Source: a virus
Taxonomy: Duplodnaviria > Caudoviricetes
IMG/VR virus record: IMGVR_UViG_3300031519_000019
Coordinates: 6,921-70,920 of that record
Strand: one strand, 5' to 3'
Length of the DNA: 64,000 nucleotides
Positions 29,861-60,018 of the stretch are shown here, in pieces. The translations under genes were made by a program, and so were the position numbers. Numbering within the stretch: the stretch's first letter is position 1; the number at the start of each line of letters is the position of its first letter. The notes under the pieces are model-generated. The model was not told the DNA's origin, made no database searches, and worked only from the letters and a program-made list of their open reading frames with translations.

Positions 29861-30220
29861 ATGGATCAACGTCTAAAAGCCGCATTAGATTTTTCAAATT
29901 ATGCAGTCACTCTTAATAATCAAAAACGTCTATTAAGAGAACAATTTAATGAAGCTAATGTATATTATTATAACGGAGCACAGTTTACTCTTTCGCGAGA
30001 ATTAATAAATTTTTGTCAAAGCTTAGTTTTACTAAATTGCACATCGACAATATTAATTGACGATAATCATAATCCTATCGGCATTGACGATTTGCCCACG
30101 TTTTCGTCTAATATATACACTGTGTATATAGAAGCAGCAACGACATATCTTAATTTATATAATGAATTAAAGAAATCTAGATCAGTTGAAAAATTAATAA
30201 ATTATGCCGTTGACAAGTAA
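29861..30220 (+). CDS. Hypothetical protein (119 aa)
   Basis: Good Shine-Dalgarno and promoter, overlaps the next gene; no recognisable motif. Confidence 0.7.
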   Translation: MDQRLKAALDFSNYAVTLNNQKRLLREQFNEANVYYYNGAQFTLSRELINFCQSLVLLNCTSTILIDDNHNPIGIDDLPTFSSNIYTVYIEAATTYLNLYNELKKSRSVEKLINYAVDK

Positions 30221-31067
30221 AGGTGCAATACTAATTGCAAAAAATAACAAACATGTAGATTATGTTAAGCAGGCAGTGTTTGCAGCCAACCGCATTAAAA
30301 CATATTTAAACATACCTACAACTATCATTACTGATAGTAAAAATTATTTGTTGAATAATTTTGATTCAACTGTATTTGATCATATTATTCCATTAAAGTA
30401 TGAAGCCGAAACAGGCAACGAACGTTTATTTTTTGATGGCGCAAATACAAATAAAACAGCAAATTTTAAAAATTCTGGCCGCGCCAAGGTATATGATGTA
30501 TCGCCTTATGATGAAACTTTATTATTAGATACCGATTACATTATATCAAACAATATTTTAAAAAATTGTTTTACTTCGGCAAATGATTTTTTAATTTATA
30601 AAGATGCAAGCGATCTTGCTCAAGTGCGTAACGAACAAGAATTCAAGTATATAAGCGACACCGGTGTTGAGTTTTACTGGGCAACGGCAGTATTTTTTAG
30701 AAAAACGCCTACTAATAAAATATATTTTAACTTAGTGGATCATATTGAACAAGAATGGACACATTATCGACGAGTTTATCAAATTGAATCGTCAATGTTT
30801 AGGAATGACTATGCATTTAGTATTGCTATCCATATAATGAACGGGTTTCAACAGGGTAACTTTGCAAACGCAATGCCTGGAAAAATGTGGTACACTACTG
30901 ATAAAGATATATTAATATCTATTGTTAAGGATAGTATGACATTTATGGTTGAAAAAGAAAAAAGTTTTGGAAATTATACTGCAATAACTTCTAACAACCA
31001 AACAGTTCATGTTATGAATAAATTTAGTTTAGGCAGGGTTATTGACAAAGGATTCAAAAATGACTAA
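30204..31067 (+). CDS. GT-A fold glycosyltransferase-like protein
   Basis: SPYDETLLLDTDY (DxD after a hydrophobic strand); paralog of 31042. Confidence 0.7.
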   Translation: MPLTSKGAILIAKNNKHVDYVKQAVFAANRIKTYLNIPTTIITDSKNYLLNNFDSTVFDHIIPLKYEAETGNERLFFDGANTNKTANFKNSGRAKVYDVSPYDETLLLDTDYIISNNILKNCFTSANDFLIYKDASDLAQVRNEQEFKYISDTGVEFYWATAVFFRKTPTNKIYFNLVDHIEQEWTHYRRVYQIESSMFRNDYAFSIAIHIMNGFQQGNFANAMPGKMWYTTDKDILISIVKDSMTFMVEKEKSFGNYTAITSNNQTVHVMNKFSLGRVIDKGFKND

Positions 31068-31887
31068 CGGGTATGTAATGCTTGCACAAAATAGTCAAGA
31101 TGATTACGTAATGCAAGCATGTTTGTGTGCAATGAGCTTACATGCGTCAAATGATGATCCAAAAATAACATTAATTACTAATGATAGTGTTCCTTTTAAG
31201 TATAGGACACTATTCGATAATATTATTCCAATTCCAGGTAACGATTTAGCAGATGATTCTGACTGGAAGATAGAAAATCGTTGGAAAATTTATAATGCAA
31301 GCCCGTACGATAAAACAATTGTCTTAGATACTGATATGATTGTTCTCGAAAACTTATTATCTCGATGGAAAATTTTAGAAAATTATAAAATATTTTTTAC
31401 AAGTGCAGTTTTAAATTATCGAGGAATGTTGTCGGATAATAGTTATTATAGACGCACATTTATCAATAATAACTTACCTAATTTGTATAGCGGATTTCAT
31501 TATTTTGAAAAATCTAATACTGCTGACAGGTTCTATAAATGGCTAGAAAATGTAGTTACTAACTGGGAAGTATTTTATGAAGACTTTTTAAATATTAATT
31601 CTAGACCCAATCGCCCTAGTATAGATGTTTGTGCAGCAATTGCTGCATTAACTACTGACATTCATATTACTAATTCAACACCTATGTTTGTACATATGAA
31701 AATGAATAGCCAAGGATGGACTAAACCTGTAACAAGTTGGCAAAAACATGTAGGATGCTATGTGTCGGCTAACGGAAGTATAAAAATTGGTAACTATCAT
31801 CAAAATGGAATTTTACATTATACTGAAAAAGATTTATTAACTAATACTAATATTATATCAATTTATGAGGATATAGTAAATGTCTGA
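31042..31887 (+). CDS. GT-A fold glycosyltransferase-like protein
   Basis: NRWKIYNASPYDKTIVLDTDM (DxD), NLYSGFHYF, PMFVHMK. Confidence 0.7.
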   Translation: MTKDSKMTNGYVMLAQNSQDDYVMQACLCAMSLHASNDDPKITLITNDSVPFKYRTLFDNIIPIPGNDLADDSDWKIENRWKIYNASPYDKTIVLDTDMIVLENLLSRWKILENYKIFFTSAVLNYRGMLSDNSYYRRTFINNNLPNLYSGFHYFEKSNTADRFYKWLENVVTNWEVFYEDFLNINSRPNRPSIDVCAAIAALTTDIHITNSTPMFVHMKMNSQGWTKPVTSWQKHVGCYVSANGSIKIGNYHQNGILHYTEKDLLTNTNIISIYEDIVNV

Positions 31888-32476
31888 ACTACTTAATTTA
31901 TTTAAAAAATTATCAGAAAATAAAATTGAAACAGCCTTAAAGTCTTATGTATACTATAATAGTGCCACTGGTAAGGTTTATAAAGTTAGTAATCGAAAAA
32001 TTTCAGACTCTGAGTACAGTATATTAGAAGTTTCATTTAACGATACTGAAGACTTATTGTCCGGCAAAAAACGCACCGACGATTATATTGTAGTTCCTAG
32101 CGAAACAACATCTTTGCCTGTTTTAAAATTATTAAACAGTTTAATTTTAACAAGTGATGTAGAACATCGATGCTATAAATTACCAGTTAAATTAGGTCAT
32201 TCCAATGTTAATATTATAAAAAACTTAAAAACACAATCGTGGGATTTACAGTTAGACGCTCAGACTGCACTAATATGCTCTGCAGAAAATTCAAAAAATA
32301 CATTATATTTTAGTATAACAAAAAAAGATGATCCAAACATACTTTATAGATCTATTGAATTTTTTAACAATACCACTTCAATACCATTCGCTTATGACTT
32401 TGAATATATGGATGAAACTGTAAGTATATATAGTTCAAAATATTTTAATACGTATAGCTACGAGGTTATAAAATGA
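31880..32476 (+). CDS. Hypothetical protein (198 aa)
   Basis: Overlap-coupled to both neighbours; no motif recognised. Confidence 0.65.
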   Translation: MSELLNLFKKLSENKIETALKSYVYYNSATGKVYKVSNRKISDSEYSILEVSFNDTEDLLSGKKRTDDYIVVPSETTSLPVLKLLNSLILTSDVEHRCYKLPVKLGHSNVNIIKNLKTQSWDLQLDAQTALICSAENSKNTLYFSITKKDDPNILYRSIEFFNNTTSIPFAYDFEYMDETVSIYSSKYFNTYSYEVIK

Positions 32477-34077
32477 TACAAAAGTTTAAAGTAATTGATT
32501 GCGACATCATTTATCTAAGTTACGATGAGCCTAATGCAGAAAAAAATTATGCAGACTTACTTACTAAGGTACCGTGGGCTAAACGTGTACATGGTGTAGA
32601 AGGCAGCGATGCTGCGCACAAAGCATGTGCAAGATTAAGTGAAACTGATCAATTTATTACTGTTGACGGTGATAATATAATTGATCAAAAGTTTCTTGAT
32701 CTTGAGATTGAATTTCAAGAGCATGTTGAGTTGCAAACAAGTGTAATTAGTTGGTCTGCAAAAAATTCTATTAATGATCTTATGTACGGTAACGGTGGCA
32801 TTAAGTGCTGGCCTAAGCAACATGTTTTAAACATGCGCACACATGAAAATGCAGATCCAAATAATATAGCAGCACAAGTAGACTTTTGTTGGGATTTGAA
32901 TTATATACAGCAAAATACTGCATTTTCTACTATACATAATAATGCTACACCTCACCAAGCCTGGAGAGCCGGCTTTAGAGAAGGCGTTAAAATGTGTCTT
33001 AATCAAGGTGAAAAACCTTCTATAGAACAGTTTATTAACGGCCACAAACGCAATTTACAAAGACTGTATATTTGGTTAATGGTTGGTGCTGATGTAAAAA
33101 ATGGCGACTGGGCTATATTAGGTGCTAGAGCAGGATTGTATAAAACAATGTGTACAGATTGGGACTTTGTAAATGTAAGAGATTTTGAATATCTTAATAG
33201 TTTATGGAATGAAGAATTTGTAGATTTTGAAGGTCATAATGTATACGACGAAATTGTCAAATACGGTTCTAAATTAAAACAAGAATTAACTCTACCAATA
33301 TCTGTAAATCCGTTTGATAGTCAACAAAGCGCTTTCTTTAAAAGCATATATGTTCAGCCTCTTCGAACTACTGACTTGACTAATATTGTTACTAAAAGCA
33401 ATTACGATATGGTACTTATTTCATACCAGGAACCTAATGCAGACGCAAATTATGAAAAACTAAAAAAGAAATTTCCTAGAATCCAGCGAGTTAATGGTGT
33501 TAAAGGAATACATGCAGCACACAAAGCCGCAGCGGAATTATGCAACACACCGATGATGTGGGTAATTGATGCTGATGCTGATGTAGTAGATAATTTTAAA
33601 TTTGATTACAACGTTAATGATCACGATCAAGATTGTGTGTTTGTATGGCACAGTAAAAATCCTATTAACGACTTAGAATACGGGTATGGAGGAATTAAAC
33701 TTTTCCCAACTAAGTTAACTCAAAATATGGATATGTCTAAACCTGACATGACTACAAGTATCAGTACTAAGTTTAAAAAGATGGAAGAAGTATCGTGCGT
33801 AACTCGATTTAATACAGATGAATTTAGTACTTGGCGCAGTGCATTTAGAGAATGTTGTAAACTGTCTAGCAAAATAATTGACAGACAAAAATCAAATGAA
33901 ACTGATGCAAGATTAGCAGCATGGTGCAGCAACATAGGCAGAGATCGCCCGTTTGGAGACTATGCTATCAGCGGTGCTAGGGCCGGCCGTAAATACGGTA
34001 TAGATAATCAAGGCAATATTGACGCACTAAAAAAGATTAATGACTTTGAATGGTTAAAGGAAAAATTTAATGAGTAA
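32473..34077 (+). CDS. Tandem two-domain glycosyltransferase-like (GT-A) protein
   Basis: Internal duplication: IYLSYDEPNAEKNY...RVHGVEGSDAAHKACA...TVDGDN...AWRAGFREGVK versus VLISYQEPNADANY...RVNGVKGIHAAHKAAA...VIDADA...TWRSAFRECCK; DxD in both halves. Confidence 0.65.
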   Translation: MIQKFKVIDCDIIYLSYDEPNAEKNYADLLTKVPWAKRVHGVEGSDAAHKACARLSETDQFITVDGDNIIDQKFLDLEIEFQEHVELQTSVISWSAKNSINDLMYGNGGIKCWPKQHVLNMRTHENADPNNIAAQVDFCWDLNYIQQNTAFSTIHNNATPHQAWRAGFREGVKMCLNQGEKPSIEQFINGHKRNLQRLYIWLMVGADVKNGDWAILGARAGLYKTMCTDWDFVNVRDFEYLNSLWNEEFVDFEGHNVYDEIVKYGSKLKQELTLPISVNPFDSQQSAFFKSIYVQPLRTTDLTNIVTKSNYDMVLISYQEPNADANYEKLKKKFPRIQRVNGVKGIHAAHKAAAELCNTPMMWVIDADADVVDNFKFDYNVNDHDQDCVFVWHSKNPINDLEYGYGGIKLFPTKLTQNMDMSKPDMTTSISTKFKKMEEVSCVTRFNTDEFSTWRSAFRECCKLSSKIIDRQKSNETDARLAAWCSNIGRDRPFGDYAISGARAGRKYGIDNQGNIDALKKINDFEWLKEKFNE

Positions 34078-34903
34078 TGAAAGTACTTTAAGCTGGGTAA
34101 GAGGTCTATCAGAATATTTAAGATTTGTTGATGATAAGGAAGCAAAAAAGTTTATTGATTTTTTAGAACAAGCTATGTATGCAGATTCGCCAGTAATTGA
34201 TGATACTAATCAAGCAGGAATGATTGAATTTATAAGTGTATTAAGAAAGTTTACACCAAACCCAATTTTTGATATATTTCATAAGTATTACAGATTAGGT
34301 AATAACCCATTATTGCTACAAGATGCATTTAGTAGAGGACAGGTATTAAGTAAAATCTGGTTAGCTGAAGAATTATTAAAAATTAAAAATAATTTTGAAA
34401 TGATTCATGTACATGCAGGATGGTTTGGACAGCTACGTCTTTACCTTGATGCAGTAAATATCTCTTATAATAAAATGAGAATTTTTGATATTGATCCAGC
34501 TGCACTAGAAGTGAGCGACAAAATTTTTAATAATGATAAAATTAAAGACTTTGAAGTAAAATCTGCAAGTTTAGATATTACAAATCCTACTTGGTTATTT
34601 AGAACAGGATGCGAATATAATATAACTGCTACATCTAAAGAAAAAACAATACCTGATCTTGTAGTTAATACTAGTGCAGAACACTTTAACGAAGATTGGT
34701 ATACTAAATTTAGTATTAGAACCCAAAGCAGTGATCCTCTTTTTGTAATTCAAACAAACAATTTATTTGATGTAGAAGAACACATAAACTGTGTACATAG
34801 TATAAATGAAATGTTAATTAAATTTCCAATGACACGGATCGAATATGCCGGCGAAAAAGAACTATTTGGTTATAAACGATTTATGTTAATAGGACGCCCA
34901 TGA
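34070..34903 (+). CDS. Class I SAM-dependent methyltransferase-like protein
   Basis: IHVHAGWFG (motif I-like), RIFDIDP (acidic end of strand 2), LVVNTSAEH. Confidence 0.65.
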   Translation: MSNESTLSWVRGLSEYLRFVDDKEAKKFIDFLEQAMYADSPVIDDTNQAGMIEFISVLRKFTPNPIFDIFHKYYRLGNNPLLLQDAFSRGQVLSKIWLAEELLKIKNNFEMIHVHAGWFGQLRLYLDAVNISYNKMRIFDIDPAALEVSDKIFNNDKIKDFEVKSASLDITNPTWLFRTGCEYNITATSKEKTIPDLVVNTSAEHFNEDWYTKFSIRTQSSDPLFVIQTNNLFDVEEHINCVHSINEMLIKFPMTRIEYAGEKELFGYKRFMLIGRP

Positions 34904-35121
34904 ATATAGATAATTTAACACTCAGACAGCTCCAGACTGAAAGTGCCCGTGCGCTAAGTACTATAGACGCAACAAATAATAACATATGGCAGTTTAACAA
35001 GCAAGCACATCATAATAGCCAAAATTGGTATACAGCAGTTATTAAATGGTATATAGAACAGTATGGCGACTTACCAAGTAAAGTTGGCCCAGGTAAGGAC
35101 GTAAAATTAATATTGGAATGA
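34900..35121 (+). CDS. Small hypothetical protein (73 aa)
   Basis: ATGA overlaps on both sides (translational coupling). Confidence 0.7.
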   Translation: MNIDNLTLRQLQTESARALSTIDATNNNIWQFNKQAHHNSQNWYTAVIKWYIEQYGDLPSKVGPGKDVKLILE

Positions 35122-36068
35122 CAATGAACATAATTAAAATTTTAAAAGAAAATAAAAAATCTATAATTGAGCAATCAGTAGAATGGATTAAAAAATCTTA
35201 TCCTAATCGTACTACTGAATTTGAAAAGTGCTATAGAGATATTGGTTATGTGTATGATGCATGGATATATGATTTAGAAAATACTAATACTGCTAGAACA
35301 AAGAATATTACCAGTAGATTTTGGAACAGAGGAAAGTCTCAGTTAAGAACAACTGATGTTGAAGTAAAAACTTATAAAATAATTAATACTTTGATAAACG
35401 AAATTTGTCCGTCTGTTGAAGTTGATAGCTTAATATCTATTACAATAAACAATATTTTAAATGAACCAATTTATGAATTAGGGTCTTTCGAATATCTCGC
35501 AAATAATAGAATCAATACATATAATTGGACAGATCAAATACCTGAACAGCATTTAATAGATGATATTGTAAGAGGCATACACAATTATGTGCCGAGTAAA
35601 CAGCGTCGAGTTAGATACGATTTACGTATTATTCCTACACATACACTGCCTGAGTTACAACAAAAGATGTATAAAGGCACTGAAGCAGATCTAGGTAATC
35701 CAAAATCAAGATATAATCCTCAAGTACTTGCACCTTATGTTCTTGCCTTTGGCATTAGAGGAACTCCGCAAGACGGAGTTGATAAAAATTACTATCTCTA
35801 TGAAGCAGGGGTTGAAATAGGGCTTGCAGCAATGTATGTTAGTCTTGCTGCTCCTGCTGTTGGATTGGCTGTTGGATTTTGCGCTTGTATACAAAATGAT
35901 AACGACATGGTTGAGGATATTGGCATACATCCTCAATTATATTTAGGAATTGGTTATAAATCTGAGGCTCTTACATATCATTGCCCGGTATATAACGCCG
36001 AAGCTCACATACCAGATAGCAATGATTATAAAAAACCTCCTATAGAAGAATACATAAAATATGTATAA
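35118..36068 (+). CDS. Nitroreductase-family (FMN) domain fused to an N-terminal helical domain
   Basis: WTDQIPEQHLIDDIV...PSKQ...APYVLAF...EIGLAAMYVSLAAPAVGLAVGFCAC is the nitroreductase pattern; N-terminal KCYRDIGY. Confidence 0.7.
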   Translation: MTMNIIKILKENKKSIIEQSVEWIKKSYPNRTTEFEKCYRDIGYVYDAWIYDLENTNTARTKNITSRFWNRGKSQLRTTDVEVKTYKIINTLINEICPSVEVDSLISITINNILNEPIYELGSFEYLANNRINTYNWTDQIPEQHLIDDIVRGIHNYVPSKQRRVRYDLRIIPTHTLPELQQKMYKGTEADLGNPKSRYNPQVLAPYVLAFGIRGTPQDGVDKNYYLYEAGVEIGLAAMYVSLAAPAVGLAVGFCACIQNDNDMVEDIGIHPQLYLGIGYKSEALTYHCPVYNAEAHIPDSNDYKKPPIEEYIKYV

Positions 36069-37128
36069 GTATGAAGATATAAAAGCAATTCATCTTGAAG
36101 TAACTCAAAATTGTCAAGCCAGTTGTCCTATGTGCGACCGCAATATGAATGGCAAAGGCATAAACCCTCATATTAACTTAGATGAACTTTCATTAGAAGA
36201 TTGCAAAAAAATATTCTTGCCAGAGTTTATTGCACAACTTAACACAATGTATATGTGCGGAAACTTAGGTGATCCTATTGTTGCTCGTGATACCTTAGAA
36301 ATATTCAAGTACTTCCGTGAACACAATACTAACATGTGGCTGAGCATGAATACAAATGCAGGAGCAAAGAATGAACAATGGTGGAAAGAACTTGCAGAAG
36401 TTTTTGGAAGAATGGGCGCAGTTATTTTTAGTGTTGACGGCCTCCGTGACACTAACCATATCTATCGTCAAGGCGTTGTATGGGACAATGTAGAGCGTAA
36501 CATGAAGGCGTTTATTAGTGCAGGCGGTAGAGCTCGTTGGGACTTTTTAATATTTGAACACAACCAACATCAAGTTGAAGAAGCAGAAACACTTGCTAAT
36601 GCGTGGGGCTGCGAAAAGTTTATGAAGAAAAAGACAGGCCGCTTTATTACGCAAGATTCAAAGAAAAAAGAATCGCACCAAGCAGTTGACAAAAAAGGAA
36701 AGGTAGCAGCAGAATTAAAAAAACCTGATATTAAATATCAAAATAATGCATTAAAGACTCAAGAAAAAGTAGAAAAGAAATATAATAGTATGGATGCATA
36801 CTATGATAGCGCTCCTATTATTTGTAAAGTAAAGAAAGACAATAGCTTGTTCATTACAGCAGAAGGTCTAGCATTGCCTTGTTGTTGGACAGCCGGACGC
36901 ATGTACAAATGGTGGCATAAAGATCCTAAGGTAGAACAAATATGGGATTTTATCCCTAATAAAGATGCATTAGATGCACGTAACGGATTAGCAGCAGTAT
37001 TTAACACAGGTATATTTGATAGTATACAAAGCAGTTGGAGTAAGCCTAGTTGCGCAGACGGCAAACTAAAAGTATGTGCGATGAAATGCGGCGCCGAATT
37101 TGATCCATTTGCAGAGCAGTTTAAGTAA
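36061..37128 (+). CDS. Radical SAM protein with C-terminal twitch/SPASM Cys cluster
   Basis: CQASCPMC; CGNLGDP; C-terminal C...ITAEGLALPCC...C...CAMKC. Confidence 0.88.
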   Translation: MYKYEDIKAIHLEVTQNCQASCPMCDRNMNGKGINPHINLDELSLEDCKKIFLPEFIAQLNTMYMCGNLGDPIVARDTLEIFKYFREHNTNMWLSMNTNAGAKNEQWWKELAEVFGRMGAVIFSVDGLRDTNHIYRQGVVWDNVERNMKAFISAGGRARWDFLIFEHNQHQVEEAETLANAWGCEKFMKKKTGRFITQDSKKKESHQAVDKKGKVAAELKKPDIKYQNNALKTQEKVEKKYNSMDAYYDSAPIICKVKKDNSLFITAEGLALPCCWTAGRMYKWWHKDPKVEQIWDFIPNKDALDARNGLAAVFNTGIFDSIQSSWSKPSCADGKLKVCAMKCGAEFDPFAEQFK

Positions 37129-37136: not shown

Positions 37137-38054
37137 ATGCCATCATTACTAATAGAAGATAAATTATCAAAAAAACCTCAAATTCCAAAAAAACTTAATA
37201 AGTTTTTAAGGAATCATTATCTCTATTTCTTTCCTGAATACCCGTTAGTTAATCTAAGTCATATACCTAGCGCAGATGAAGATTATTTATCTGATAATAA
37301 ACTTAGAAATTATTATGTCAATTTAGATTATAAAATGATAGAGCATAGAGATCATCCCAAACGAATAGTAGGAGAGATGTGCAATTTATCAAATTTTTTA
37401 ATTACTAGTATGGATCAAACCGGCATTTCTTCTCCCTTAAATTTGTTTGATAGTAACAGTATACATCCTGGAAATAAAAGACTATTATGTGCAAGATATC
37501 TAAATTTAAAATATGTCCCAGTAGTATGGCAAAGTTTTATATATATTCCTGGTCTAAAACGCATAACAACTTTAGAAGATATCTATAATATATACGGAAC
37601 AAATATAAGTATTAATCTTGCGCCTAAATCATATGGACCTGCTAGATTAGAAGTATCGTGGCACGGCGAAACACATCGTAGAGATCATAACGGATATGAT
37701 GATTGGTATACTACAAGTAGACTTCGTACTGAGTTTAATGTATTAGACTATCTATTAACACACGGATTAGAAATTGTTAACTCTACAATTGAAAAAGAAA
37801 TTACAAATACACAATATCCTATAAAATATACAAAAGCAAGAAAAAATAAAATATCTATTGAAATATTAGACAATTCCTTAATGGATGAAAACTTAGACTT
37901 TTGGGAATTGTATTTTCACATTGATCCTACTGTTGCTTCAAAGTTATGTAAAACAAAAAGAATTAGAATTATAAATGACTATGCTACAGGTAATATATTA
38001 ACAGAATGCAATCTATACAACACGCTAATAAGAAGGAAGTATCATTTTGATTAA
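37137..38054 (+). CDS. Hypothetical protein with possible ParB/sulfiredoxin-like motif
   Basis: IHPGNKRLLCARYLNLKYVPVV resembles the DGxxR...LG...VPV ParB/Srx signature. Confidence 0.4.
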   Translation: MPSLLIEDKLSKKPQIPKKLNKFLRNHYLYFFPEYPLVNLSHIPSADEDYLSDNKLRNYYVNLDYKMIEHRDHPKRIVGEMCNLSNFLITSMDQTGISSPLNLFDSNSIHPGNKRLLCARYLNLKYVPVVWQSFIYIPGLKRITTLEDIYNIYGTNISINLAPKSYGPARLEVSWHGETHRRDHNGYDDWYTTSRLRTEFNVLDYLLTHGLEIVNSTIEKEITNTQYPIKYTKARKNKISIEILDNSLMDENLDFWELYFHIDPTVASKLCKTKRIRIINDYATGNILTECNLYNTLIRRKYHFD

Positions 38055-49309: not shown

Positions 49310-49310
49310 A

Positions 49311-51185: not shown

Positions 51186-51189
51186 ACTT

Positions 51190-51195
51190 TATTTA
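51190..51195 (-). promoter_or_regulatory. Late-like box TAAATA, 4 nt before ATG 51185
   Basis: Minus strand reads TTAAATA-AAGT-ATG. Confidence 0.5.
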
Positions 51196-51227
51196 ACCGA
51201 GAGTGCCTACTGCAAATGATGATACCG

Positions 51228-51241
51228 ATAAATATATTTAT
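51228..51241. promoter_or_regulatory. Perfect 14-bp palindrome ATAAATATATTTAT giving an ATAAATA box on each strand
   Basis: Self-complementary; sits between divergent genes; the + box is 5 nt before ATG 51240. Confidence 0.55.
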
Positions 51242-51993: not shown

Positions 51994-53460
51994 ATGTATC
52001 ATGCAGTAATATTTACAGGGTTAAACTACGGCGAAATCTCTTATTATCGGCCGATTGGCGCATACCGTATTAGAACAGAATTAGAAAGTCGAGGATATAA
52101 TGTAAAAGTTATTGAACACTTTCATCATTTAACAAATGAACATATTGAACAAGCATTAGACAAATATGTTAGTAGTAAAACACTATGGGTTGGATTTAGT
52201 ACTACTTTTATTAATACATCAACGCTTCTTTTAGATAGATCAGATTTTTTTACCAAACTAAAGCAAAAATATAATGTGCCTTTTGTAATTGGCGGATCAA
52301 AGGCAATAGTAGATACTCTTCCTTGGTCTGACGTTTTAATTACTGGTTACGCTGACGATGCTGTAATAGCTATAACCGATCATTTTGCTGGCAAAGGATC
52401 TGCGCCTAAATGGGTTGATTACAAAGGTAAAAAACTTATCAATAGTAATCATTCTTATGATAGAAAAGATTTATCAAACATTGGCGTTATATGGAAGCCA
52501 GAAGATCATATAACATCATATGAAACTATGCCAATGGAAATTGCCCGTGGGTGTATTTTTAATTGTGCTTTTTGTAATTTTCCATTAAACAACAAAAAGA
52601 AATTTGACTATATTAGAGTCAAAGAAGACATGACCAACGAGTTCCTACGTAATTATGAGGAATTTGGCACAACTAGTTATAGCTTTATGGATGACACATA
52701 CAATGATAGTATGTTAAAACTAGAACTTATGCACGAAGTAATAAACGGATTACCGTTTAAGATCAAATTTGACACATACATTAAACCTGAATTACTAGTA
52801 CGCTGGCCTGAACAAATCGATTTGTTAGTTGAATCAGGTCTCCGAGGAGCAAGTCTAGGTCTTGAAAGCTTAAATAATCAATCTCGACAAGCTGTGCAAA
52901 AAGGTGCCGACGGCGAAAAAGTATTAGATGCAATATCAAATTTAAAATCTAAAAGCAATGGCTCTGTAAAAATACAAACTAATTTAATTGTAGGATTACC
53001 TCACGAAACTTCTGAAAGTTTATGGCAAACCCACAGTACTGTGGTTAATAATCCAGATATTGATTGGTGGAACTGGTATGCATTACAAATCCATTCAAAA
53101 GATCGTCATGAGTATCATTCTCCAATTGATAGAGATCCAGCAAAATACGGATACGAAATAATTGAAGAACCAAAACTAATAAAAAATAATATGGTTGACG
53201 ATAATCAATGGATAGTACCGTGGAGAAACGAACATATGGATTCTCAAGGAGCCCAAGACATGGCAAACTTATTACGCCGTCTTGATAAACCTTTGATTAA
53301 AATTGCTGGATGGTCATGCGGAGCATATGCTAGTCTTGGTGTAGACATTGATAAACATTACGAAGAGCATGACGGCATAATAACCTTGTTACCATTGGAC
53401 GATCTTAAGAATAAAAAAATTCAAATAATAGACAATTATATTCAAAAAGAAATAACATAA
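51994..53460 (+). CDS. Radical SAM protein with B12-binding-like N-terminal domain (class B methylase architecture)
   Basis: PIGAYRIRTELESRGYNVKVIE...VGFST...FVIGG...; EIARGCIFNCAFC; FMDDTY; SLGLESLN; NLIVGLPHET. Confidence 0.82.
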   Translation: MYHAVIFTGLNYGEISYYRPIGAYRIRTELESRGYNVKVIEHFHHLTNEHIEQALDKYVSSKTLWVGFSTTFINTSTLLLDRSDFFTKLKQKYNVPFVIGGSKAIVDTLPWSDVLITGYADDAVIAITDHFAGKGSAPKWVDYKGKKLINSNHSYDRKDLSNIGVIWKPEDHITSYETMPMEIARGCIFNCAFCNFPLNNKKKFDYIRVKEDMTNEFLRNYEEFGTTSYSFMDDTYNDSMLKLELMHEVINGLPFKIKFDTYIKPELLVRWPEQIDLLVESGLRGASLGLESLNNQSRQAVQKGADGEKVLDAISNLKSKSNGSVKIQTNLIVGLPHETSESLWQTHSTVVNNPDIDWWNWYALQIHSKDRHEYHSPIDRDPAKYGYEIIEEPKLIKNNMVDDNQWIVPWRNEHMDSQGAQDMANLLRRLDKPLIKIAGWSCGAYASLGVDIDKHYEEHDGIITLLPLDDLKNKKIQIIDNYIQKEIT

Positions 53461-54044
53461 TCTTTATATTTTTCTAAACTTCTTTTTAATATTATGCGGT
53501 GTTTTTCTATATCTAATGTCCCGGATATAGTCATTATAATTTTTCTATCTGGTTCTGTAGGTAAATCAGACGCATGTAGTGCATCGTAATTATTAATAAC
53601 AAACCATTTTGTTAGATGATTAGGATGTTTAATATAAATTTTATCTTCAATGTGTTTTTCTTTTTGAAAGTACATTAACGGTTTATCATATACCATAAAC
53701 GCTTTATACGAATTGGGCTGATCTTGGCTATCAATAACCGGTTGTGACGTTTTATCTCGATGTAGTTGACAATAAATTTTTTGTTCTAAGAAATTTACAT
53801 ATGTAACATCTGTAAACGGTAAATGATTATATAAGATATCTTGAAAATTTGGTATTATTTTTAAAAAGTCTTGATTCCACCCTCGATCTTTGTGATATGC
53901 AAAACTTATCAACCACGGTGCAATAAAATTATCTGCGTGGCCGCCTCTATCACGCTTACGATTGGCGTTGTGCCATTTTATAAATTTATCTATATCAACA
54001 TCCATTGCAGGTAAGTCGGCAGGAGTATAAAGTGCTAATACCAT
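53442..54044 (-). CDS. Fe(II)/2OG-type oxygenase-like protein
   Basis: QLHRD...FVINNYDALHAS...KIIMTISG. Confidence 0.55.
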   Translation of the reverse strand: MVLALYTPADLPAMDVDIDKFIKWHNANRKRDRGGHADNFIAPWLISFAYHKDRGWNQDFLKIIPNFQDILYNHLPFTDVTYVNFLEQKIYCQLHRDKTSQPVIDSQDQPNSYKAFMVYDKPLMYFQKEKHIEDKIYIKHPNHLTKWFVINNYDALHASDLPTEPDRKIIMTISGTLDIEKHRIILKRSLEKYKDYVISF

Positions 54045-54799
54045 ATTTGATAGTCCTTATGCAAATGGGTACTTTTTTCTAGAAGTTTAAATAATTTGTC
54101 TTTATCATATTCGCCCATTATTGTGCAAGTTATTCGACTACCAGTTGGAGTAGAGTTTTTATCTACGCCATGCCAAGCTCTACTACTGTTTAACATCCAA
54201 GCACATTGTTCTTTTGGAAACTTAGCGTATAACTTTTCGTTTCTGCAATAATCTAAGTAATTTCTTTTTTTTGCTAAGGGAATGCCGTCACTGTCTTCCA
54301 TAGTACGTATTTGTTTGTCGTTTATTTCTTTTGTCCTGCTAAAATACAATGCATCTTTGTTTTTATTTTTAAGATAAAATCTCATTCCCCATAGTTCGTC
54401 AGGGTCAGTATGTGGTTCGACAGTAGCTCCGCCTATCTGATTTAAAAAACTAATACTTTTTGCTTGTTTAAATGGAAAGAGCTCTAGATATTCTACTAGT
54501 TCAGGAAAACGTTTATCAAAGTCGCATATCCACGGCTTATCGGTATTATACGTAGTATACCATTTAGCCCAACTAACGTGCCAACAATACCCGCCATATA
54601 GTTTTGTACTATTGATACGGTTTTGATTATGTTCAAGCATATATGATTTTTGATCACTATGCCATGAAACAAACTCGTCCATGCTGATTTCTGGAGGATC
54701 AGGTAGTGCTAACGGTGAAAATATTAAGTTACGCCAGTCTATCATTTTTTGCCAAAAACTCTTATTTGTATTCTTGGAGCGAAAATTTCTGTAGTGCAA
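54035..54799 (-). CDS. Fe(II)/2OG-type oxygenase
   Basis: VEPHTD...WMLNSSRAWHGV...RITCTIMG. True start is probably the later ATG (MIDWRN), since the listed start overlaps the upstream gene by 58 nt. Confidence 0.62.
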   Translation of the reverse strand: MHYRNFRSKNTNKSFWQKMIDWRNLIFSPLALPDPPEISMDEFVSWHSDQKSYMLEHNQNRINSTKLYGGYCWHVSWAKWYTTYNTDKPWICDFDKRFPELVEYLELFPFKQAKSISFLNQIGGATVEPHTDPDELWGMRFYLKNKNKDALYFSRTKEINDKQIRTMEDSDGIPLAKKRNYLDYCRNEKLYAKFPKEQCAWMLNSSRAWHGVDKNSTPTGSRITCTIMGEYDKDKLFKLLEKSTHLHKDYQIWY

Positions 54800-55413
54800 T
54801 GCGGCAACGCATCGTTAAAGTGCCATGCTTTATGTTTGCTTTCGTCTACAGTTTCTAGCCCTGTTGGAGATTTAAATTGTAAATTACCTCCTCCGTCAGA
54901 CACGTTTAGTGTAATACTTACGCCTCCGTTTTGATAATATTTTAAATTATCTTTTATTCCTGAATCTACATGTACAATTCCTTTACTAGGAGGTGTTTGG
55001 CCTACTAATCGCACACAACTTACATAAGACAAATTTAGACCATCAACAACATCAATTAGATATTGCGGAGTATCAGATTTCCATTTCCAAGAAGTATCAT
55101 ACACTTGCCAGATAGGCCTTCTTCCTTCTGGAGTATCTACAAAACTTTGATTGTTTGTTTCGGGTATATTAGGCAAGTGTGTAAAGTTGTAAGTAACAAA
55201 TGTATTAAATTTACCTTCAATTTTAGTTCCGTTATCGTCATAGTGTACAACATCGTTGTATTCGTCAAAGAATCCATCTTGGTCATATTTACTACGACCG
55301 TTGTTGTAAATAACAGTAGCAAGGAAACTTTTATCAAAGATATTCATTTTAGTCAATTCGTCAAATAAATGACGTTGATCAAAATTATACTCAATAGGTT
55401 CAAAATGTTTCAT
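54742..55413 (-). CDS. Fe(II)/2OG-type oxygenase
   Basis: VRLVGQ...IVHVD...ITLNV...WHFNDALPHCT...RIQIRVFG. Confidence 0.62.
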   Translation of the reverse strand: MKHFEPIEYNFDQRHLFDELTKMNIFDKSFLATVIYNNGRSKYDQDGFFDEYNDVVHYDDNGTKIEGKFNTFVTYNFTHLPNIPETNNQSFVDTPEGRRPIWQVYDTSWKWKSDTPQYLIDVVDGLNLSYVSCVRLVGQTPPSKGIVHVDSGIKDNLKYYQNGGVSITLNVSDGGGNLQFKSPTGLETVDESKHKAWHFNDALPHCTTEIFAPRIQIRVFGKK

Positions 55414-55433: not shown

Positions 55434-56300
55434 ATGTTACCGCTAACCTATAGTGATTATTTTACTACTTCAGGACACGGAGATAATTGGAAAGTGCATC
55501 TTAAATCATGTACTCAAGAGCCTAACTCGTTTCACAACGAGTGTATTCGTGCTGCTAAAATACTTTATGAATCTGCATCTAGTCCAATAGTGTTGTTGTT
55601 CAGCGGCGGCTTAGATAGTGAGTATATGATTAACATTTTTAAAAAAGCTGGCATAGATTTTAAAGTTGCAATTATAAGTTATGGTGCTTATAATACACAC
55701 GACACCGCATATGCCTTTGAATATTGTAACGCACACAATTTATCACCGATAATAATTGATGTTGATATAGATAAATTTATAACTAGCGGTAAAATAATCG
55801 AAATAGCAACAACAGCCAAATGTTGTGCTTATCAAATACCTAGCATTATGTATGGTATTAGTAAAATAGACGGCACTGTTATAATGGCTAATGGCGAACC
55901 GTATATTAAAAACTTTGACGGAGACTGGCGCTGGGAAGAAACTGAAAGAGTTAATAGCTATATGAACTGGTTTAGAGATCAGCGATTAGAAGGTACTCCT
56001 GATTTTTTAAGATACACTCCAGAAATGACAGCTGGGTTTTTAAAGGAACCACGGGTTATACAATTAGTTAATAACCAATTACCTGGAAAACTCAGCACTC
56101 GTACTAGCAAATATATGATATACAGTAAAGATTTTACATTTAAAGAACGTCCAAAATTTACAGGATGGGAACAAATAGAAAAAACTTCGCTAATGAATAA
56201 CGAAGTTTTTTTAGAAATTAATAATTTAAAGAAACATTACAACGGAGTGTTTGAATTACAATATGCTGATTTATGCCAGCATTTGTCTGTCAAATGTTAA
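55434..56300 (+). CDS. PP-loop (adenine nucleotide alpha-hydrolase) enzyme, asparagine-synthetase-like catalytic domain
   Basis: IVLLFSGGLDSE (SGGxDS PP-loop), later VIMANGEP; no glutaminase domain. Confidence 0.7.
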   Translation: MLPLTYSDYFTTSGHGDNWKVHLKSCTQEPNSFHNECIRAAKILYESASSPIVLLFSGGLDSEYMINIFKKAGIDFKVAIISYGAYNTHDTAYAFEYCNAHNLSPIIIDVDIDKFITSGKIIEIATTAKCCAYQIPSIMYGISKIDGTVIMANGEPYIKNFDGDWRWEETERVNSYMNWFRDQRLEGTPDFLRYTPEMTAGFLKEPRVIQLVNNQLPGKLSTRTSKYMIYSKDFTFKERPKFTGWEQIEKTSLMNNEVFLEINNLKKHYNGVFELQYADLCQHLSVKC

Positions 56301-56642
56301 TTCTTTATTTGCAGCAGCAAAACTAGCAAAGTTTTGGAATGTTATTTCTTCGTCTGTAAATGATCCACCGAACTCGTCAAGGTGTTCTCCTACATTTGAA
56401 TTAAACTTGTCAAGGGATTCTTGACCATCAAGAATCCAAACTATTTCAACTCCGAGATTGTCATTTATAATTTCACCATGCATAAGCCAAATGTCGCCTT
56501 TCTCTATCATGTCATCAACGCCGTCAAGAATAAGTAGCGTTACTGCCGGATCAGCATTACCTAATACTGAAATAAGATGAGCATTTTCTTCTGGTCGTGC
56601 AACACCGTCAACGTTTAATAAAGTATATGTTAGTTTTTTCAT
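56271..56642 (-). CDS. Small acidic hypothetical protein (123 aa) with its own late box and strong RBS
   Basis: ATAAATA at 56667-56661, then AAGGAG 7 nt before the ATG; D/E-rich. Confidence 0.7.
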   Translation of the reverse strand: MKKLTYTLLNVDGVARPEENAHLISVLGNADPAVTLLILDGVDDMIEKGDIWLMHGEIINDNLGVEIVWILDGQESLDKFNSNVGEHLDEFGGSFTDEEITFQNFASFAAANKELTFDRQMLA

Positions 56643-56676: not shown

Positions 56677-56681
56677 TTAGT

Positions 56682-57254
56682 ATGGAAAATTATTTTTTAT
56701 TACCAGACTTAAAATACGATAATGAACGCATTGAATTAGAAAATTATGTTAATTCATATACTAATTGGTCGTTTCTAGGTGTTGGTCGATTTAAAATCTA
56801 TATAGGATTTCCTGAAAGACATGCTATAAATCCTATAGCTTCTAAGTTTAAAAATCCAAAGACTCTATTTAAAAAAATAGAAATGAATCTAGTTAAGGCA
56901 AACGGCATTGTTGCTCCCCATACAGACTGTGATAGATTTGCTACTTTGAATATACCTATTATGGGAGATTTTAAAAATAGCACCTTAGATTTTTATACTA
57001 AGAATACAGACGGAGAAGAAGTACCTGGACTAGATGGAAATATCAATGCTGTGTATAAGCCTAAGCACTATGTACAAGAAGATCTAATAGATCAGATATC
57101 TTATACGGTTCCGGTATGCTTTAATACCCAAACTGTTCACGGTGTTACAAATTGTACTAAACAAGATAGATATATTTTAACTTTAAGTTTTAAAGAAGAG
57201 TTTACTTACAATAAAATAAAAGATATGTACGAATACGGAGATTTATTAGTGTAA
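56682..57254 (+). CDS. Fe(II)/2OG-type oxygenase
   Basis: VAPHTD...ATLNIPI...VCFNTQTVHGV...RYILTLSF. Confidence 0.7.
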   Translation: MENYFLLPDLKYDNERIELENYVNSYTNWSFLGVGRFKIYIGFPERHAINPIASKFKNPKTLFKKIEMNLVKANGIVAPHTDCDRFATLNIPIMGDFKNSTLDFYTKNTDGEEVPGLDGNINAVYKPKHYVQEDLIDQISYTVPVCFNTQTVHGVTNCTKQDRYILTLSFKEEFTYNKIKDMYEYGDLLV

Positions 57255-57958
57255 TGTTTTCAGAAAAACTATTTAAAAACGTATTTGATCCAACTGCAAT
57301 CAAACAAGTTGCAGAAAATTTAAAAACAATTGACAATAAAGAAACATTTATATACGAACAAGACCAAACCACAGTAAGAAGTATATTTGCTCCTCATTGG
57401 TTTGATAATACGTTAAAAGAGTTTGTCAATAACAATCCTATGATAGATATAGTTAAAGATATCTTAGAAACAGATGTTTATACTCATCAAGTGCATTTTA
57501 ATTATAAATCTGCAAACATAGGAGGCGAGTATGCATGGCATAGTGATTACACTTTTTGGCAAGCACACGACGGTATGCCGGATCCTAATGCATTAAGTTT
57601 ATTATTCTTGTTAGACGATATGACATTAGAAAACGGCCCCCTAGAAGTATTACCGGGCAGTGAAAATTTTCTTGTTGAAAAGAAGACTAAAACTTGGACT
57701 ATTAAGCATGATGCTAACGAAAAAGACGGTATGATAACCGAAAATATGGTGTCTATGACTGGATTACAGCGTCATACAGTACTGGGCGAAGCAGGGGATG
57801 TGTATGTGATGCATGCTAATATGTGGCACACTAGCGGGCGTAATACAAGCTCTAAAGACAGGAATGTGTTGTTTATATGCTACAATTCTGTTGATAATAA
57901 GACTACAAAAACAGATAGACCCAATTACATAACACTAAGAAACTTTAGTCCAGTTTAG
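57254..57958 (+). CDS. PhyH-family Fe(II)/2OG dioxygenase, ectoine-hydroxylase (EctD)-like
   Basis: RSIFAPH, HQVHFNYK, AWHSDYTFWQAHDGMP, NGPLEVLPGS, HANMWHTS..N.S..DRNVLFICYNSVDN. Confidence 0.85.
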   Translation: MFSEKLFKNVFDPTAIKQVAENLKTIDNKETFIYEQDQTTVRSIFAPHWFDNTLKEFVNNNPMIDIVKDILETDVYTHQVHFNYKSANIGGEYAWHSDYTFWQAHDGMPDPNALSLLFLLDDMTLENGPLEVLPGSENFLVEKKTKTWTIKHDANEKDGMITENMVSMTGLQRHTVLGEAGDVYVMHANMWHTSGRNTSSKDRNVLFICYNSVDNKTTKTDRPNYITLRNFSPV

Positions 57959-59090
57959 TTGTTATTATATTGCTTGCTATTGTTTGCCATTTATCATGGG
58001 CTTCGGTTAGTGTAGCACCTGATGTAACGCAAAATCCTTTAGACACCATCAGCATATCCATGCGTGTCAAATAAGACTGTTGTGCAGGCAATGTCAATTC
58101 ATCAGCAAGTGTAGCATCGCCTCTAAACTCTACTTTATGTTTGCCCTTTGCTATATCAAAATACTTATAAACTACGCACTTATCTAGTTGTACTTTTGTT
58201 TTATCTTTGTATAGTAAACTATCTACAATAAGTTTGTTATAGTTGATGCCTGCACTGTGTTTAATTAACACTTGCGCACTTACACTTAGTCTAGGACTAA
58301 AATCTACCAAATAAAATTGTCCATCTCTACTACTTATAAAGTCAGCCATCCATGCACAGTTAGTTAGTTCTAAGCCGTTACTTAACTTTTCTATTTGTTC
58401 TTTTATAGGATCTGTATTTTTGTAATAACTGTTAAGTAAGAATCCAGTTTCTGCTCTGTATGGTAGTTCACTTGATTCGATAGTATATACACAATCAAAT
58501 AATATATCACCATCTACAATTCTGCCAGCACAACTAATAGTAGGACCGTCTATAAAATCTTGGAAGATATAATGCTTGCCTAGGTCGTTATACTGTATAT
58601 CTTCTCCAGAAGCAAAAAAGAAATATTCACTGTAGTCATTTAATACTTTAACTCCAATACTTCCTGTACCGTTTACTGGTTTAGCAATAATAGGATAAGT
58701 TACTTGTTTAATATCGTCATACGTGTTTGGAACTGTTACTCCTACACTTTTTGCAAAGGCAGTATACGCTTGCTTACTAGATAATATGTTGCATTGTTTA
58801 TCAGTGAATCCTAACTTTTTATACAAGTAAGGAAACATCATATCGTTGTATAAAGGAAAAATTAAATCTATATTTTTTTCTTCTATATAGGCTAAGATTA
58901 CTTTTGCTAAATCGCCTCTTTCTCTTTCAAATATATCAACATTATCTATTAAATTATCGTGTAACGGAATGACAGTATTTTTTGCGAACTCGTTACCTAA
59001 TGCTCTCCAAGAATATAGATTATGTTCTTTTAGTTCTTCTACAGCATATCTTAGATTGCTAGTTTGATAATTTAATAAAATATTAACCAT
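57945..59090 (-). CDS. ATP-grasp ligase (L-amino-acid ligase/carboxylate-amine ligase-like)
   Basis: YPIIAKPVNGTGSIGV, YIFQDFIDGP, FYLVDFSPR. Confidence 0.8.
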   Translation of the reverse strand: MVNILLNYQTSNLRYAVEELKEHNLYSWRALGNEFAKNTVIPLHDNLIDNVDIFERERGDLAKVILAYIEEKNIDLIFPLYNDMMFPYLYKKLGFTDKQCNILSSKQAYTAFAKSVGVTVPNTYDDIKQVTYPIIAKPVNGTGSIGVKVLNDYSEYFFFASGEDIQYNDLGKHYIFQDFIDGPTISCAGRIVDGDILFDCVYTIESSELPYRAETGFLLNSYYKNTDPIKEQIEKLSNGLELTNCAWMADFISSRDGQFYLVDFSPRLSVSAQVLIKHSAGINYNKLIVDSLLYKDKTKVQLDKCVVYKYFDIAKGKHKVEFRGDATLADELTLPAQQSYLTRMDMLMVSKGFCVTSGATLTEAHDKWQTIASNIITTKLD

Positions 59091-59677
59091 TACGTATATC
59101 TAATATTATCATCTTTTAAATTGTTTATATCAAAACCGTGTTGCCTAAAAGGTACAGCAAATCGCAATACTGCATCTTTTTCTAACGGACCTTTTAATAT
59201 AAAGTCGTATAACGGAATGTTAGTTACAGTGCCTGCTGGAACAACAACAATGTCCATTATGTTATATTTTGCAAATGCATCTGAATAGTGTGTAGCAAAC
59301 CCCTCACCTGGCCAAGTAATATGTTTTTTAAGACGCCCTGCGTGTACCCACCACCAGCCCCATACGCCTATTTTTTCGTGAGTTTTAATAACAAAATCTA
59401 ATAGATCAAAAGTAACTTGTTTGCCTACTTTAATTCCTATTTTTCTAGATAGTTGTGTGTCTAAATACATCCAACCTACACCTGTTACTGGAGTTTTATT
59501 AGATGCTAATACTTGTATAAATTTGCCATCGTTATCAACTGCTGCAAAAATTCTACGATTTTCAGAGATAAAAGAAATATTATTCCACGAGCTATCTAAC
59601 TTTCGAGCAGAAAGTTGTTCAATAATAAATTCATCAAATTGTTGCTTATGCGATTGATCGAGTTCAATTATTTGCAT
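59090..59677 (-). CDS. Hypothetical protein, possibly GNAT fold
   Basis: MQIIELDQSH...RRIFAAVDNDGKFI pattern typical of GNAT N-termini; no clear CoA motif; overlap-coupled to panD and the ATP-grasp gene. Confidence 0.4.
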   Translation of the reverse strand: MQIIELDQSHKQQFDEFIIEQLSARKLDSSWNNISFISENRRIFAAVDNDGKFIQVLASNKTPVTGVGWMYLDTQLSRKIGIKVGKQVTFDLLDFVIKTHEKIGVWGWWWVHAGRLKKHITWPGEGFATHYSDAFAKYNIMDIVVVPAGTVTNIPLYDFILKGPLEKDAVLRFAVPFRQHGFDINNLKDDNIRYT

Positions 59678-60018
59678 GGGTAACCTAGTATATCCTTAAT
59701 TTCGTTGTCTTTGTTACAAAATATAACTTTTGCTCCGCCAAACGATTCTGTAGCATGATATGTAATTACAACACATTTATCACCAATTTCTCCTAGGCGT
59801 GCTCCTCCACCGTTTAATTCAAACGATCCTTTTGGCCCAGGTACTGCATACGTAGTCCATCTAGTACCTGTGTTAAGGTTTACTACATCAAGTTTTTGGT
59901 AAGGTTCGATGCCGCTAACTTCTAGTAAGTTAGAGCAGATTGTAACACTACCGTGATAGTCAATTGACTTGGCAGTGACATTTATATTATGAAGTTTTGC
60001 GTGTATATATTCTTTCAT
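59668..60018 (-). CDS. panD: Aspartate 1-decarboxylase (pyruvoyl-dependent)
   Basis: AKLH (catalytic Lys), YHG/SVT (Gly-Ser autocleavage site), RWTTY (catalytic Tyr), LNGGGAR, GDKCVVITY; 116 aa. Confidence 0.9.
   Translation of the reverse strand: MKEYIHAKLHNINVTAKSIDYHGSVTICSNLLEVSGIEPYQKLDVVNLNTGTRWTTYAVPGPKGSFELNGGGARLGEIGDKCVVITYHATESFGGAKVIFCNKDNEIKDILGYPCK

Follow-up and report, generated by a model that had tools for sequence, protein, structure and literature searches.

Within a 64-kb stretch of viral DNA (hereafter, the window; bases 6921-70920 of the 70.9-kb IMG/VR contig IMGVR_UViG_3300031519_000019), we identified an island of putative tailoring enzymes in which 37 open reading frames (ORFs; g01 to g37), mostly coupled by overlaps, tile positions 29861-60018. 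The source contig has a CheckV completeness of 19%, which implies a genome size near 370 kb. The left 30 kb of the window encode a gp5-like hub, a gp25-like wedge, a gp6-like wedge, an ORF of 5124 amino acids (aa) and fibre genes. The gp6-like protein is 35% identical to its counterparts in the jumbo myoviruses SCTP-2, Atu_ph07, Serratia BF and related phages, which are the best baseplate relatives, and by sequence the carrier appears to be an uncultured marine Rak2/Atu_ph07-like jumbo myovirus. Three tail-fibre and two fibre-related genes, recognised by PHROG tail-fibre matches (22301..29794, plus strand), precede the island, and a receptor-binding-type protein with an Mtd_N domain (60057..61208, minus strand; Pfam Mtd_N, 41.7 bits) follows its right end; thus, the island sits inside the host-recognition part of the structural region.

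The original prediction, made from the nucleotide sequence, had described about 36 contiguous genes behind a tail-fibre module ending here at 29794, and its gene list proved essentially right, although much of its oxygenase count is at the motif level. Pfam searches at E <= 10 combined with PHROGs returned nothing useful for approximately 22 of the 37 island ORFs, and g01, g04, g07, g10 and g32 had no family match in Pfam/PHROG-type searches. Relatives were collected by scanning IMG/VR with g16, which recovered 179 stretches from contigs as long as 457 kb, and the conservation of core genes was counted across 80 of these loci (individual loci are denoted by L numbers); the g16 search also matched 2850 metagenomic proteins at E <= 1e-10. 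Across the 80 loci, only the C-terminal half of g05 (g05C), g06, g07, g09, g12, g16 and g21 are widely conserved.

The most prominent component of the island is a set of eight radical S-adenosylmethionine (rSAM) genes, the number that had been predicted, all of which pass the Pfam Radical_SAM model (PF04055; gene starts 36061, 38655, 40929, 42202, 43343, 45775, 47509 and 51994; 32-60 bits against a cut-off of 29.5) and carry the CX3CX2C motif. With the curated cut-off of 170 bits for the full model, five of them belong to NCBIfam family NF033640 (N_Twi_rSAM, "twitch domain-containing radical SAM protein"): the core gene g12 (38655..40064, plus strand; 419 bits), with orthologs in all 80 loci, the three paralogs g14, g15 and g16 (40929..44497, plus strand; 284, 218 and 401 bits, g16 being a core gene) and g19 (45775..46848, plus strand; 216.6 bits). 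Two further genes, the core gene g09 (36061..37128, plus strand; Pfam 32.4 bits; in 66 loci), which has no N-terminal twitch domain, and g21 (47509..48624, plus strand; Pfam 55.6 bits), which is conserved more strongly than any other island gene (54 loci, median identity 86%), match only the core region of NF033640 at 43 bits and are not members. The eighth gene, g27 (51994..53460, plus strand; Pfam 59.9 bits), is a class-B (B12-type) rSAM, the best NCBIfam matches of which are PhpK-type and lipid B12/rSAM families, all below their cut-offs.

In the NF033640-type genes, an N-terminal four-cysteine domain, matched by Pfam SPASM, precedes the CX3CX2C motif, and an alignment of 32 sequences shows no variation at C8, C26, C76 and C79 or at C123/C127/C130. 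The family profile, in its N-terminal domain, aligns with the BtrN twitch domain (E 9e-8); SkfB, anSME and CteB are among the closest solved relatives of the rSAM core, and BlsE was matched as well. The family thus resembles BtrN, a radical SAM dehydrogenase, and other carbohydrate-type twitch rSAMs in its alignable twitch domain and in a core that falls in the SPASM/twitch group, but differs in that the auxiliary domain lies before the core rather than after it, and the overall similarity is low. We found no biochemically characterised member of NF033640 in the literature; the family is a catalogue entry that, in this phage group, forms arrays of paralogs, with five copies in the window and a median of 4.5, and up to 9, per 21 kb in relatives. 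The arrays are variable: g15 is a strain-level indel, missing from a 100%-identical contig (L009) and from one metatranscriptome contig (joint 42200>43342).

The left end of the island is occupied by an apparently ancestral cassette containing glycosyltransferases (GTs). The original prediction had counted three GT-A genes; by profile, fold and DxD motif, we identified four GT-A-type domains, one each in g02 and g03 and two in g05. The first gene of the cassette, g01 (29861..30220, plus strand; 119 aa), is syntenic in L094-L100. It is followed by the paralogous GT8-like genes g02 and g03 (30204..31887, plus strand), the profile of which matches glycogenin-1 (GT8; E 5e-5) over only ~95 residues and has no Pfam match, and in which D109 and D111 of the DxD motif are invariant. 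After g04 (31880..32476, plus strand), g05 (32473..34077, plus strand) contains two tandem GT-A-fold domains that arose by duplication, the N-terminal half being paralogous to the C-terminal half, a universally conserved core gene that stands as a separate gene in most relatives. The AF2 model of g05C (pLDDT 92.7) adopts a GT-A/nucleotide-diphospho-sugar transferase fold, with Foldseek matches to WrtF, SunS and RmlT (E 4e-5) and a VIA match to B4GALNT1 (Z 11.3, rmsd 2.7, 135 aligned). IspD-type nucleotidyltransferases are nearly as good for this model (Z 10.7), so that the assignment of g05C as this type of transferase depends on the DxD motif, in which D57 and D59 are invariant. The matches of g05C in BFVD are viral glycosyltransferases, and the Che8 glycosyltransferase and a PBCV-1 capsid-glycan GT are among the fold matches.

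Two further core genes complete this segment. The product of g06 (34070..34903, plus strand; in 50 locus ORFs) is a methyltransferase-like candidate: it belongs to an ESM look-alike cluster in which 21% of the members carry Methyltransf_31, which gives a lead towards the methyltransferase that had been predicted here, but the gene has no Pfam and no PDB profile match. The 73-aa product of g07 (34900..35121, plus strand; median 77% identity in 28 loci) is the sole small conserved ORF and contains neither cysteines nor repeats. Searches of PDB profiles with g05, g13 and g06 yielded nothing, and the folds of g05C and of the oxygenase candidate g13 are assignments from structure prediction.

Approximately ten Fe(II)/2-oxoglutarate (2OG) oxygenases had been predicted, and an HxD/E...H iron triad is indeed kept across the homologs of ten genes (g11, g13, g22, g23, g25, g28, g29, g30, g33 and g34), although some of these alignments comprise 2-6 sequences. 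Two of the ten could be placed by other means as well. The second gene of the pair g33 and g34 (56682..57958, plus strand; g34 starting at 57254) is a PhyH dioxygenase (Pfam PhyH, 96.6 bits), and g13 (40054..40932, plus strand) is predicted to adopt the Fe(II)/2OG oxygenase fold (model pLDDT 86; H122, D124 and H266 invariant), all top Foldseek matches in PDB being 2OG oxygenases (E 4e-5, probability 1.0, TM 0.3-0.4), among them MINA53, NO66 and prolyl 4-hydroxylases as well as KanJ. The other eight remain candidates at the motif level: g33 (H80-x-D82..H153), g11 (38047..38601, plus strand; H110-x-D112..H156), g22 and g23 (48617..50045, plus strand; H91-x-D93..H208 and H159-x-D161..H209, respectively), the weak candidate g25 (50577..51185, minus strand; HxD..H in two sequences), and g28, g29 and g30 (53442..55413, minus strand; HxD..H conserved, g28 and g29 being paralogs). 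The best Pfam values of these eight are sub-threshold (Asp_Arg_Hydrox, E 0.09-0.24, with g29 at 0.09), and local hhalign against PhyH gave E 0.0045-0.16 over short stretches, the lowest value being that of g23. Local hhalign of the island families that had no assignment against PhyH, WelO5, methyltransferase and GNAT references likewise produced only short, weak alignments. In a near-identical strain, extra genes lie between the orthologs of g23 and of the desaturase gene described below, and a 226-aa ORF there (L119:11672-12352, minus strand) passes Pfam Asp_Arg_Hydrox.

The remaining enzymes likewise bear out most of the predicted list. The nitroreductase domain of g08 (35118..36068, plus strand) matches PDB nitroreductases by profile (E 2e-7) and is preceded by an N-terminal helical segment. 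This N-terminus (35118-35270) contains a conserved K-C-x-R-D motif and shows a weak alignment (E 0.04-1) to the part of phycocyanin alpha chains that holds the chromophore. Three SGNH/GDSL-like paralogs, as predicted, are encoded by g17 and g18 (44494..45782, plus strand) and g20 (46859..47479, plus strand); G7, S9, G42, D175 and H180, representing blocks I, II and V, are invariant in 19 sequences, and the profile matches the GDSL protein 4rw0 in PDB (E 0.0015) over blocks I-II, whereas no Pfam match was obtained and the block III asparagine was not identified. A GNAT acetyltransferase (g24; 50047..50631, plus strand) scores above the Pfam cut-off (23.5 versus 20.7 bits), and g26 (51156..51992, plus strand), a member of the membrane fatty-acid-desaturase family (Pfam FA_desaturase, 67.8 bits; four transmembrane-like segments), is the only island enzyme with transmembrane segments. 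The predicted PP-loop ATP pyrophosphatase is g31 (55434..56300, plus strand), which has the SGGLDS motif at residues 57-62 and scores just below the cut-off for QueC (21.5 versus 22 bits). The genes g10 (37137..38054, plus strand) and g32 (56271..56642, minus strand) lie among these enzymes.

At the right end, g35, g36 and g37 (57945..60018, minus strand; syntenic in L090-L093) include firm Pfam calls for an ATP-grasp enzyme (g35, 57945) and for PanD (g37, 59668), which, like the desaturase, had been predicted. The g37 protein carries Lys9, Gly-Ser and Tyr, g36 is without an assigned family, its prediction as a second GNAT being putative, and the three genes may constitute a module for making and ligating beta-alanine. 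A characterised parallel to such a PanD and ATP-grasp unit is found in C. jejuni, where an ATP-grasp enzyme amidates capsule glucuronate (PMC11800379). In some relatives, the PanD and ATP-grasp genes are separated by one or two additional desaturase paralogs (L090:7050-8600, L092:7852). In agreement with the original prediction, Pfam scans of the window matched no families of non-ribosomal peptide or polyketide synthases, sugar-nucleotide enzymes, transporters or DNA transferases.

The island is bracketed by inward-facing sigma70 promoters, as had been noted. The site before g01 (29806..29834, plus strand), in the gap 29795-29860, matches the consensus at 11/12 positions, and a perfect consensus is present at the same place in L097-L099; the site before g37 (60025..60052, minus strand) matches at 12/12 positions and is kept in L090-L092. 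A third site, before g21 (47476..47503, plus strand; 12/12 positions plus TG), is kept directly upstream of this gene in seven relatives (L013, L014, L018, L024, L031, L037 and L046). Perfect TTGACA-N16-18-TATAAT sequences occur twice in the window versus 0.2 expected, and given this excess and the recurrence upstream of the orthologs of g21, g37 and g01, the three sites are very probably genuine promoters. The T4 late-promoter octamer TATAAATA was also considered and rejected as a general promoter, being strongly depleted (2 copies versus 17 expected in the window; both within the island, at 45749 and 46797). ATAAATA boxes are present 10-36 nucleotides before many start codons, ahead of structural and island genes alike, and thus support no inference on the timing of expression. 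Many island genes are matched at 99-100% identity by short metatranscriptome contigs of three marine studies; these contigs show that the phage or its RNA is present in these samples but neither prove transcription nor rank the genes.

The synteny of the island was examined across relatives, and the block is not a random collection: close relatives are syntenic from the fibre genes through g13, and in the Mtd-side genes through g26, with single genes gained or lost, and the core recurs in ~80 IMG/VR loci, with the variable NF033640 array lying between core genes. Among cultured phages, we found no DNA-level match for 45 kb by megablast against a cultured-phage collection and no match for g21, g34 and g13 by tblastn, and the sole cultured phage found to carry the cassette is the Ralstonia jumbo phage RsoM2USA (MG752970). 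In RsoM2USA, ORF354 to ORF347 correspond, in order, to g01, g02, g03, a gene without counterpart label, the N-terminal half of g05, an N_Twi rSAM, g05C and g06, with 28-46% identity to the island genes (g01 is 36% identical to the RsoM2USA_354 region, and the homologs of g02 and g03 are RsoM2USA_353 and _352). As in the window, this cassette lies directly behind fibre and structural/virion genes, and the N-terminal domain of the left-flank fibre is common to RsoM2USA_355; however, it has only one rSAM and no oxygenase, SGNH or PanD parts. The cassette genes are annotated as hypothetical, and none is among the reported virion proteins (PMC8504454). In the g16 scan of genome contigs, whole rSAM arrays were found only on contigs of metagenome-assembled genomes (MAGs; L101-L105), binned with Crocinitomicaceae, Gammaproteobacteria, Acidimicrobiaceae, Verrucomicrobiales and Chloroflexota (reported as five phyla). 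These contigs are probably mis-binned phage DNA, and the bins therefore carry no host information.

The same families are also found in cellular genomes. In a search of 301 Bacteroidota genomes, NF033640 scored above the cut-off in three, including the centre MAG G001, in which the matches lie on phage-like contigs, and just under it in a fourth. We inspected three chromosomal loci. Locus L115 encodes five PhyH proteins, a WelO5-like oxygenase, a methyltransferase, two rSAMs, a secreted S74/T9SS fibre-like protein, a GDSL protein and two B12-rSAMs; L116 encodes a GDSL protein, four rSAMs, a methyltransferase-GT2 fusion and a GT-C (Alg9/ArnT-like) transferase; and L117, in which both NF033640-type copies score just below the cut-off, encodes a PhyH protein, a B12-rSAM, a methyltransferase, a polysaccharide deacetylase, a GT11-like protein, two rSAMs, three GDSL proteins and a carbamoyltransferase. 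Thus, judging by gene content, this set of families appears to stay together in cellular genomes as well, and two of the three loci place it among enzymes of the types that assemble and decorate surface glycans.

Here we observe a set of families and folds, their synteny, conserved promoters and the recurrence of the family set in bacterial glycan-type loci. Because the same families cluster with glycan enzymes in Bacteroidota chromosomes, we favour, with a probability of roughly 55%, the interpretation that the island of this marine jumbo myovirus serves to build and edit a glycan. Under this scenario, soluble cytoplasmic GT-A enzymes, namely the two GT8-like genes and the tandem pair of a new GT-A family, would place sugars from host nucleotide sugars onto an acceptor. 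The seven related twitch-type rSAM enzymes and the B12-type one could then edit the sugars by hydrogen abstraction, resulting in oxidation, epimerisation, deoxygenation or C-methylation, whereas the approximately ten oxygenases might hydroxylate sugar residues, and the SGNH-like, GNAT and methyltransferase-like enzymes would add or remove acyl and methyl groups. PanD and the ATP-grasp enzyme, and the PP-loop enzyme, are predicted to form amide decorations, for example, a beta-alanyl amide. The original prediction had regarded the island as devoid of a scaffold synthase; this overlooks its four GT-A domains, which are potentially able to lay down a sugar scaffold, so that the missing "scaffold synthase" would be the glycosyltransferases.

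As to the acceptor, we give about equal weight to virion proteins encoded by the neighbouring fibre genes and to a nascent glycan of the host envelope, which would be modified on the cytoplasmic face and exported by the host machinery. Virion proteins are favoured by the location of the cassette among fibre genes, seen in two distant lineages, by the lack of any recognisable flippase, polymerase or membrane transferase and perhaps, by analogy, by known cases in which viruses glycosylate their virions with enzymes of their own. The host envelope is favoured by the bacterial loci, by the consensus sigma70 promoters and by the way in which similar islands have been read in the literature. A more specific proposal, to which we give only tentative credence, is that the N_Twi rSAM arrays perform an undescribed carbohydrate radical chemistry on an oligosaccharide that the phage's own GT-A enzymes put on the tail-fibre proteins. 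If true, such a hypermodified virion glycan would be a new class of viral post-translational decoration tuning host recognition in abundant ocean phages.

Several observations weigh against the glycan interpretation. Approximately seven island ORFs have no family assignment, eight of the ten oxygenase calls derive from a motif, no member of NF033640 has a known reaction, and twitch/SPASM radical SAM enzymes act more often on peptides. The island has no recognisable gene for sugar-nucleotide synthesis, initiating phosphoglycosyltransferase, flippase or polymerase; inspection of the fibre proteins revealed no collagen-like runs or marked Ser/Thr-rich tracts; and of the three bacterial loci, L115 lacks a glycosyltransferase in its 20-kb neighbourhood. 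Furthermore, the right third of the island (g22-g37) is of mixed strand and could be separate cargo.

The alternative that fares best, albeit one we consider improbable, is that the island modifies side chains of proteins or peptides, either the fibre proteins or an unrecognised ribosomal peptide akin to the ribosomally synthesised and post-translationally modified peptides (RiPPs) or, more narrowly, the proteusins. The rSAMs would then make crosslinks, epimers or methyl groups, with the 2OG enzymes acting as residue hydroxylases and the GTs attaching sugars. Such a role would fit the affinity of the rSAM core to SkfB, anSME and CteB, the protein hydroxylases MINA53, NO66 and prolyl 4-hydroxylases among the fold matches of g13, and the L115 arrangement, in which rSAM and oxygenase genes without a GT stand beside the fibre-like protein; moreover, the mix of B12-rSAM, rSAM, 2OG enzymes and methyltransferase recalls polytheonamide-type clusters. 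However, searches of Pfam, NCBIfam and PHROGs revealed no precursor-like gene (small precursors being easily missed), RiPP recognition element, leader protease or exporter, and g07, the only candidate by size and conservation, lacks cysteines and repeats. Besides, glycan enzymes abound in two of the three bacterial loci, and the twitch domain matches BtrN best. Of the substrates originally proposed, virion fibres or their glycans, a host envelope glycolipid or lipopolysaccharide, and ribosomal peptides, the glycan options gained most support, through the Bacteroidota loci, whereas the ribosomal-peptide option was not supported.

It is unlikely that the island makes a sugar-derived small molecule, aminoglycoside- or nucleoside-like, that aids the infected cell or poisons competitors. 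Twitch-related rSAMs such as BtrN and BlsE, 2OG enzymes, ATP-grasp ligases and decarboxylases do occur in aminoglycoside and nucleoside antibiotic pathways, and here BtrN and BlsE are among the rSAM matches and KanJ among those of g13. A metabolite was also offered as one reading of cyanophage clusters by Iyer et al. (PMC7824862). Nevertheless, the island lacks an enzyme for a cyclitol or nucleoside scaffold, an aminotransferase, a resistance gene and an exporter, and the content varies between near-identical strains, which is unusual for a fixed pathway.

The same variability could instead indicate that there is no single pathway and that a hot spot in the fibre region gathered unrelated auxiliary genes acting on different host substrates, such as the desaturase and the B12-rSAM on lipids, PanD with the ATP-grasp enzyme, and the oxygenases. 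In line with this possibility, gene content differs among close relatives, the mixed-strand right third has its own promoters, and wide conservation is confined to the few core genes listed above; yet the island's combination of families is met again on bacterial chromosomes that are unrelated, and the genes form long overlap-coupled runs, so we likewise hold this explanation to be unlikely. The desaturase is also all that a dedicated lipid-modification reading could build on, and we rejected it for this reason. Very unlikely, finally, is hypermodification of the phage DNA by base glycosylation or side-chain chemistry: pathways of this type in phages use GTs, radical SAM, PP-loop/QueC-type and 2OG enzymes, and g31 is QueC-like, but no DpdA/TGT, base hydroxymethylase, kinase or DNA glycosyltransferase family was matched in the 64-kb window, with 19% of the genome in hand, and the viral fold matches of g05C are ordinary glycosyltransferases.

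Returning to the proposed glycan build-and-edit island, its novelty is more limited than the original prediction of an undescribed modification system suggested, given that comparable islands have been published as a kind (PMC7029224, PMC7824862, PMC5332604). The closest precedent is the "host recognition cluster" (HRC) of pelagimyophages and cyanomyophages, a class of hypervariable fibre-region islands with GTs and rSAM cassettes (Zaragoza-Solas et al. 2020, PMC7029224). The two have in common a large hypervariable island in the structural region, among tail-fibre genes, with cassettes gained and lost between close relatives. However, the HRC phages are T4-like, with genomes of 140-200 kb and the cluster between VrlC and gp14, whereas the phage analysed here has a Rak2/Atu_ph07-type baseplate and an estimated genome of ~370 kb and is not a T4-like pelagi- or cyanomyophage. 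For the HRC, conversion of the host O-chain was proposed without test, and the rSAM family and oxygenases were outside the analysis (PMC7029224). Jumbo cyanophages such as S-SSM6a contain clusters of 8-12 genes for modifying sugars and amino acids, including 2OG oxygenases and methyltransferases, whose predicted role is either the decoration of capsular polysaccharide or the production of a metabolite (Iyer et al. 2021, PMC7824862); these clusters differ in that they centre on carbamoyltransferases and a halogenase, with no radical SAM array described. A T4-like environmental genome with 12 radical SAM genes has been noted as well (PMC5332604). The virion glycosylation systems of Che8-type mycobacteriophages and of chloroviruses similarly place soluble, virus-encoded GT-A enzymes next to structural genes, but they consist of a few GTs and methyltransferases and have no radical SAM or oxygenase arrays.

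The other part of the novelty claim, that no characterised phage pathway has this composition, holds, in that no member has been biochemically characterised. Particular to this island are the Rak2-like jumbo carrier, the heavy oxygenase load, the beta-alanine module and the link to Bacteroidota loci. Islands of this type are widespread and take ~8% of a jumbo phage genome. Identification of the product would assign roles to hundreds of phage and bacterial genes now labelled "hypothetical" and could reveal new radical sugar chemistry. The answer would also decide whether it is their own particles or their hosts that marine phages decorate, with bearing on host range and superinfection in the ocean, and RsoM2USA offers a culturable entry point.

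Finally, we note several features of the flanking regions. The 5124-aa product is encoded by a single ORF (6293-21667, plus strand) between the baseplate wedge and the fibre genes, and the corresponding region of RsoM2USA is occupied by the structural protein ORF361 (>288 kDa). Downstream of the Mtd_N protein, a DUF2201 gene (62670-63977, minus strand; 153 bits) encodes a putative metallopeptidase with a VWA-like domain, and both this gene and the small genes between it and the Mtd_N protein are kept in L090-L093.

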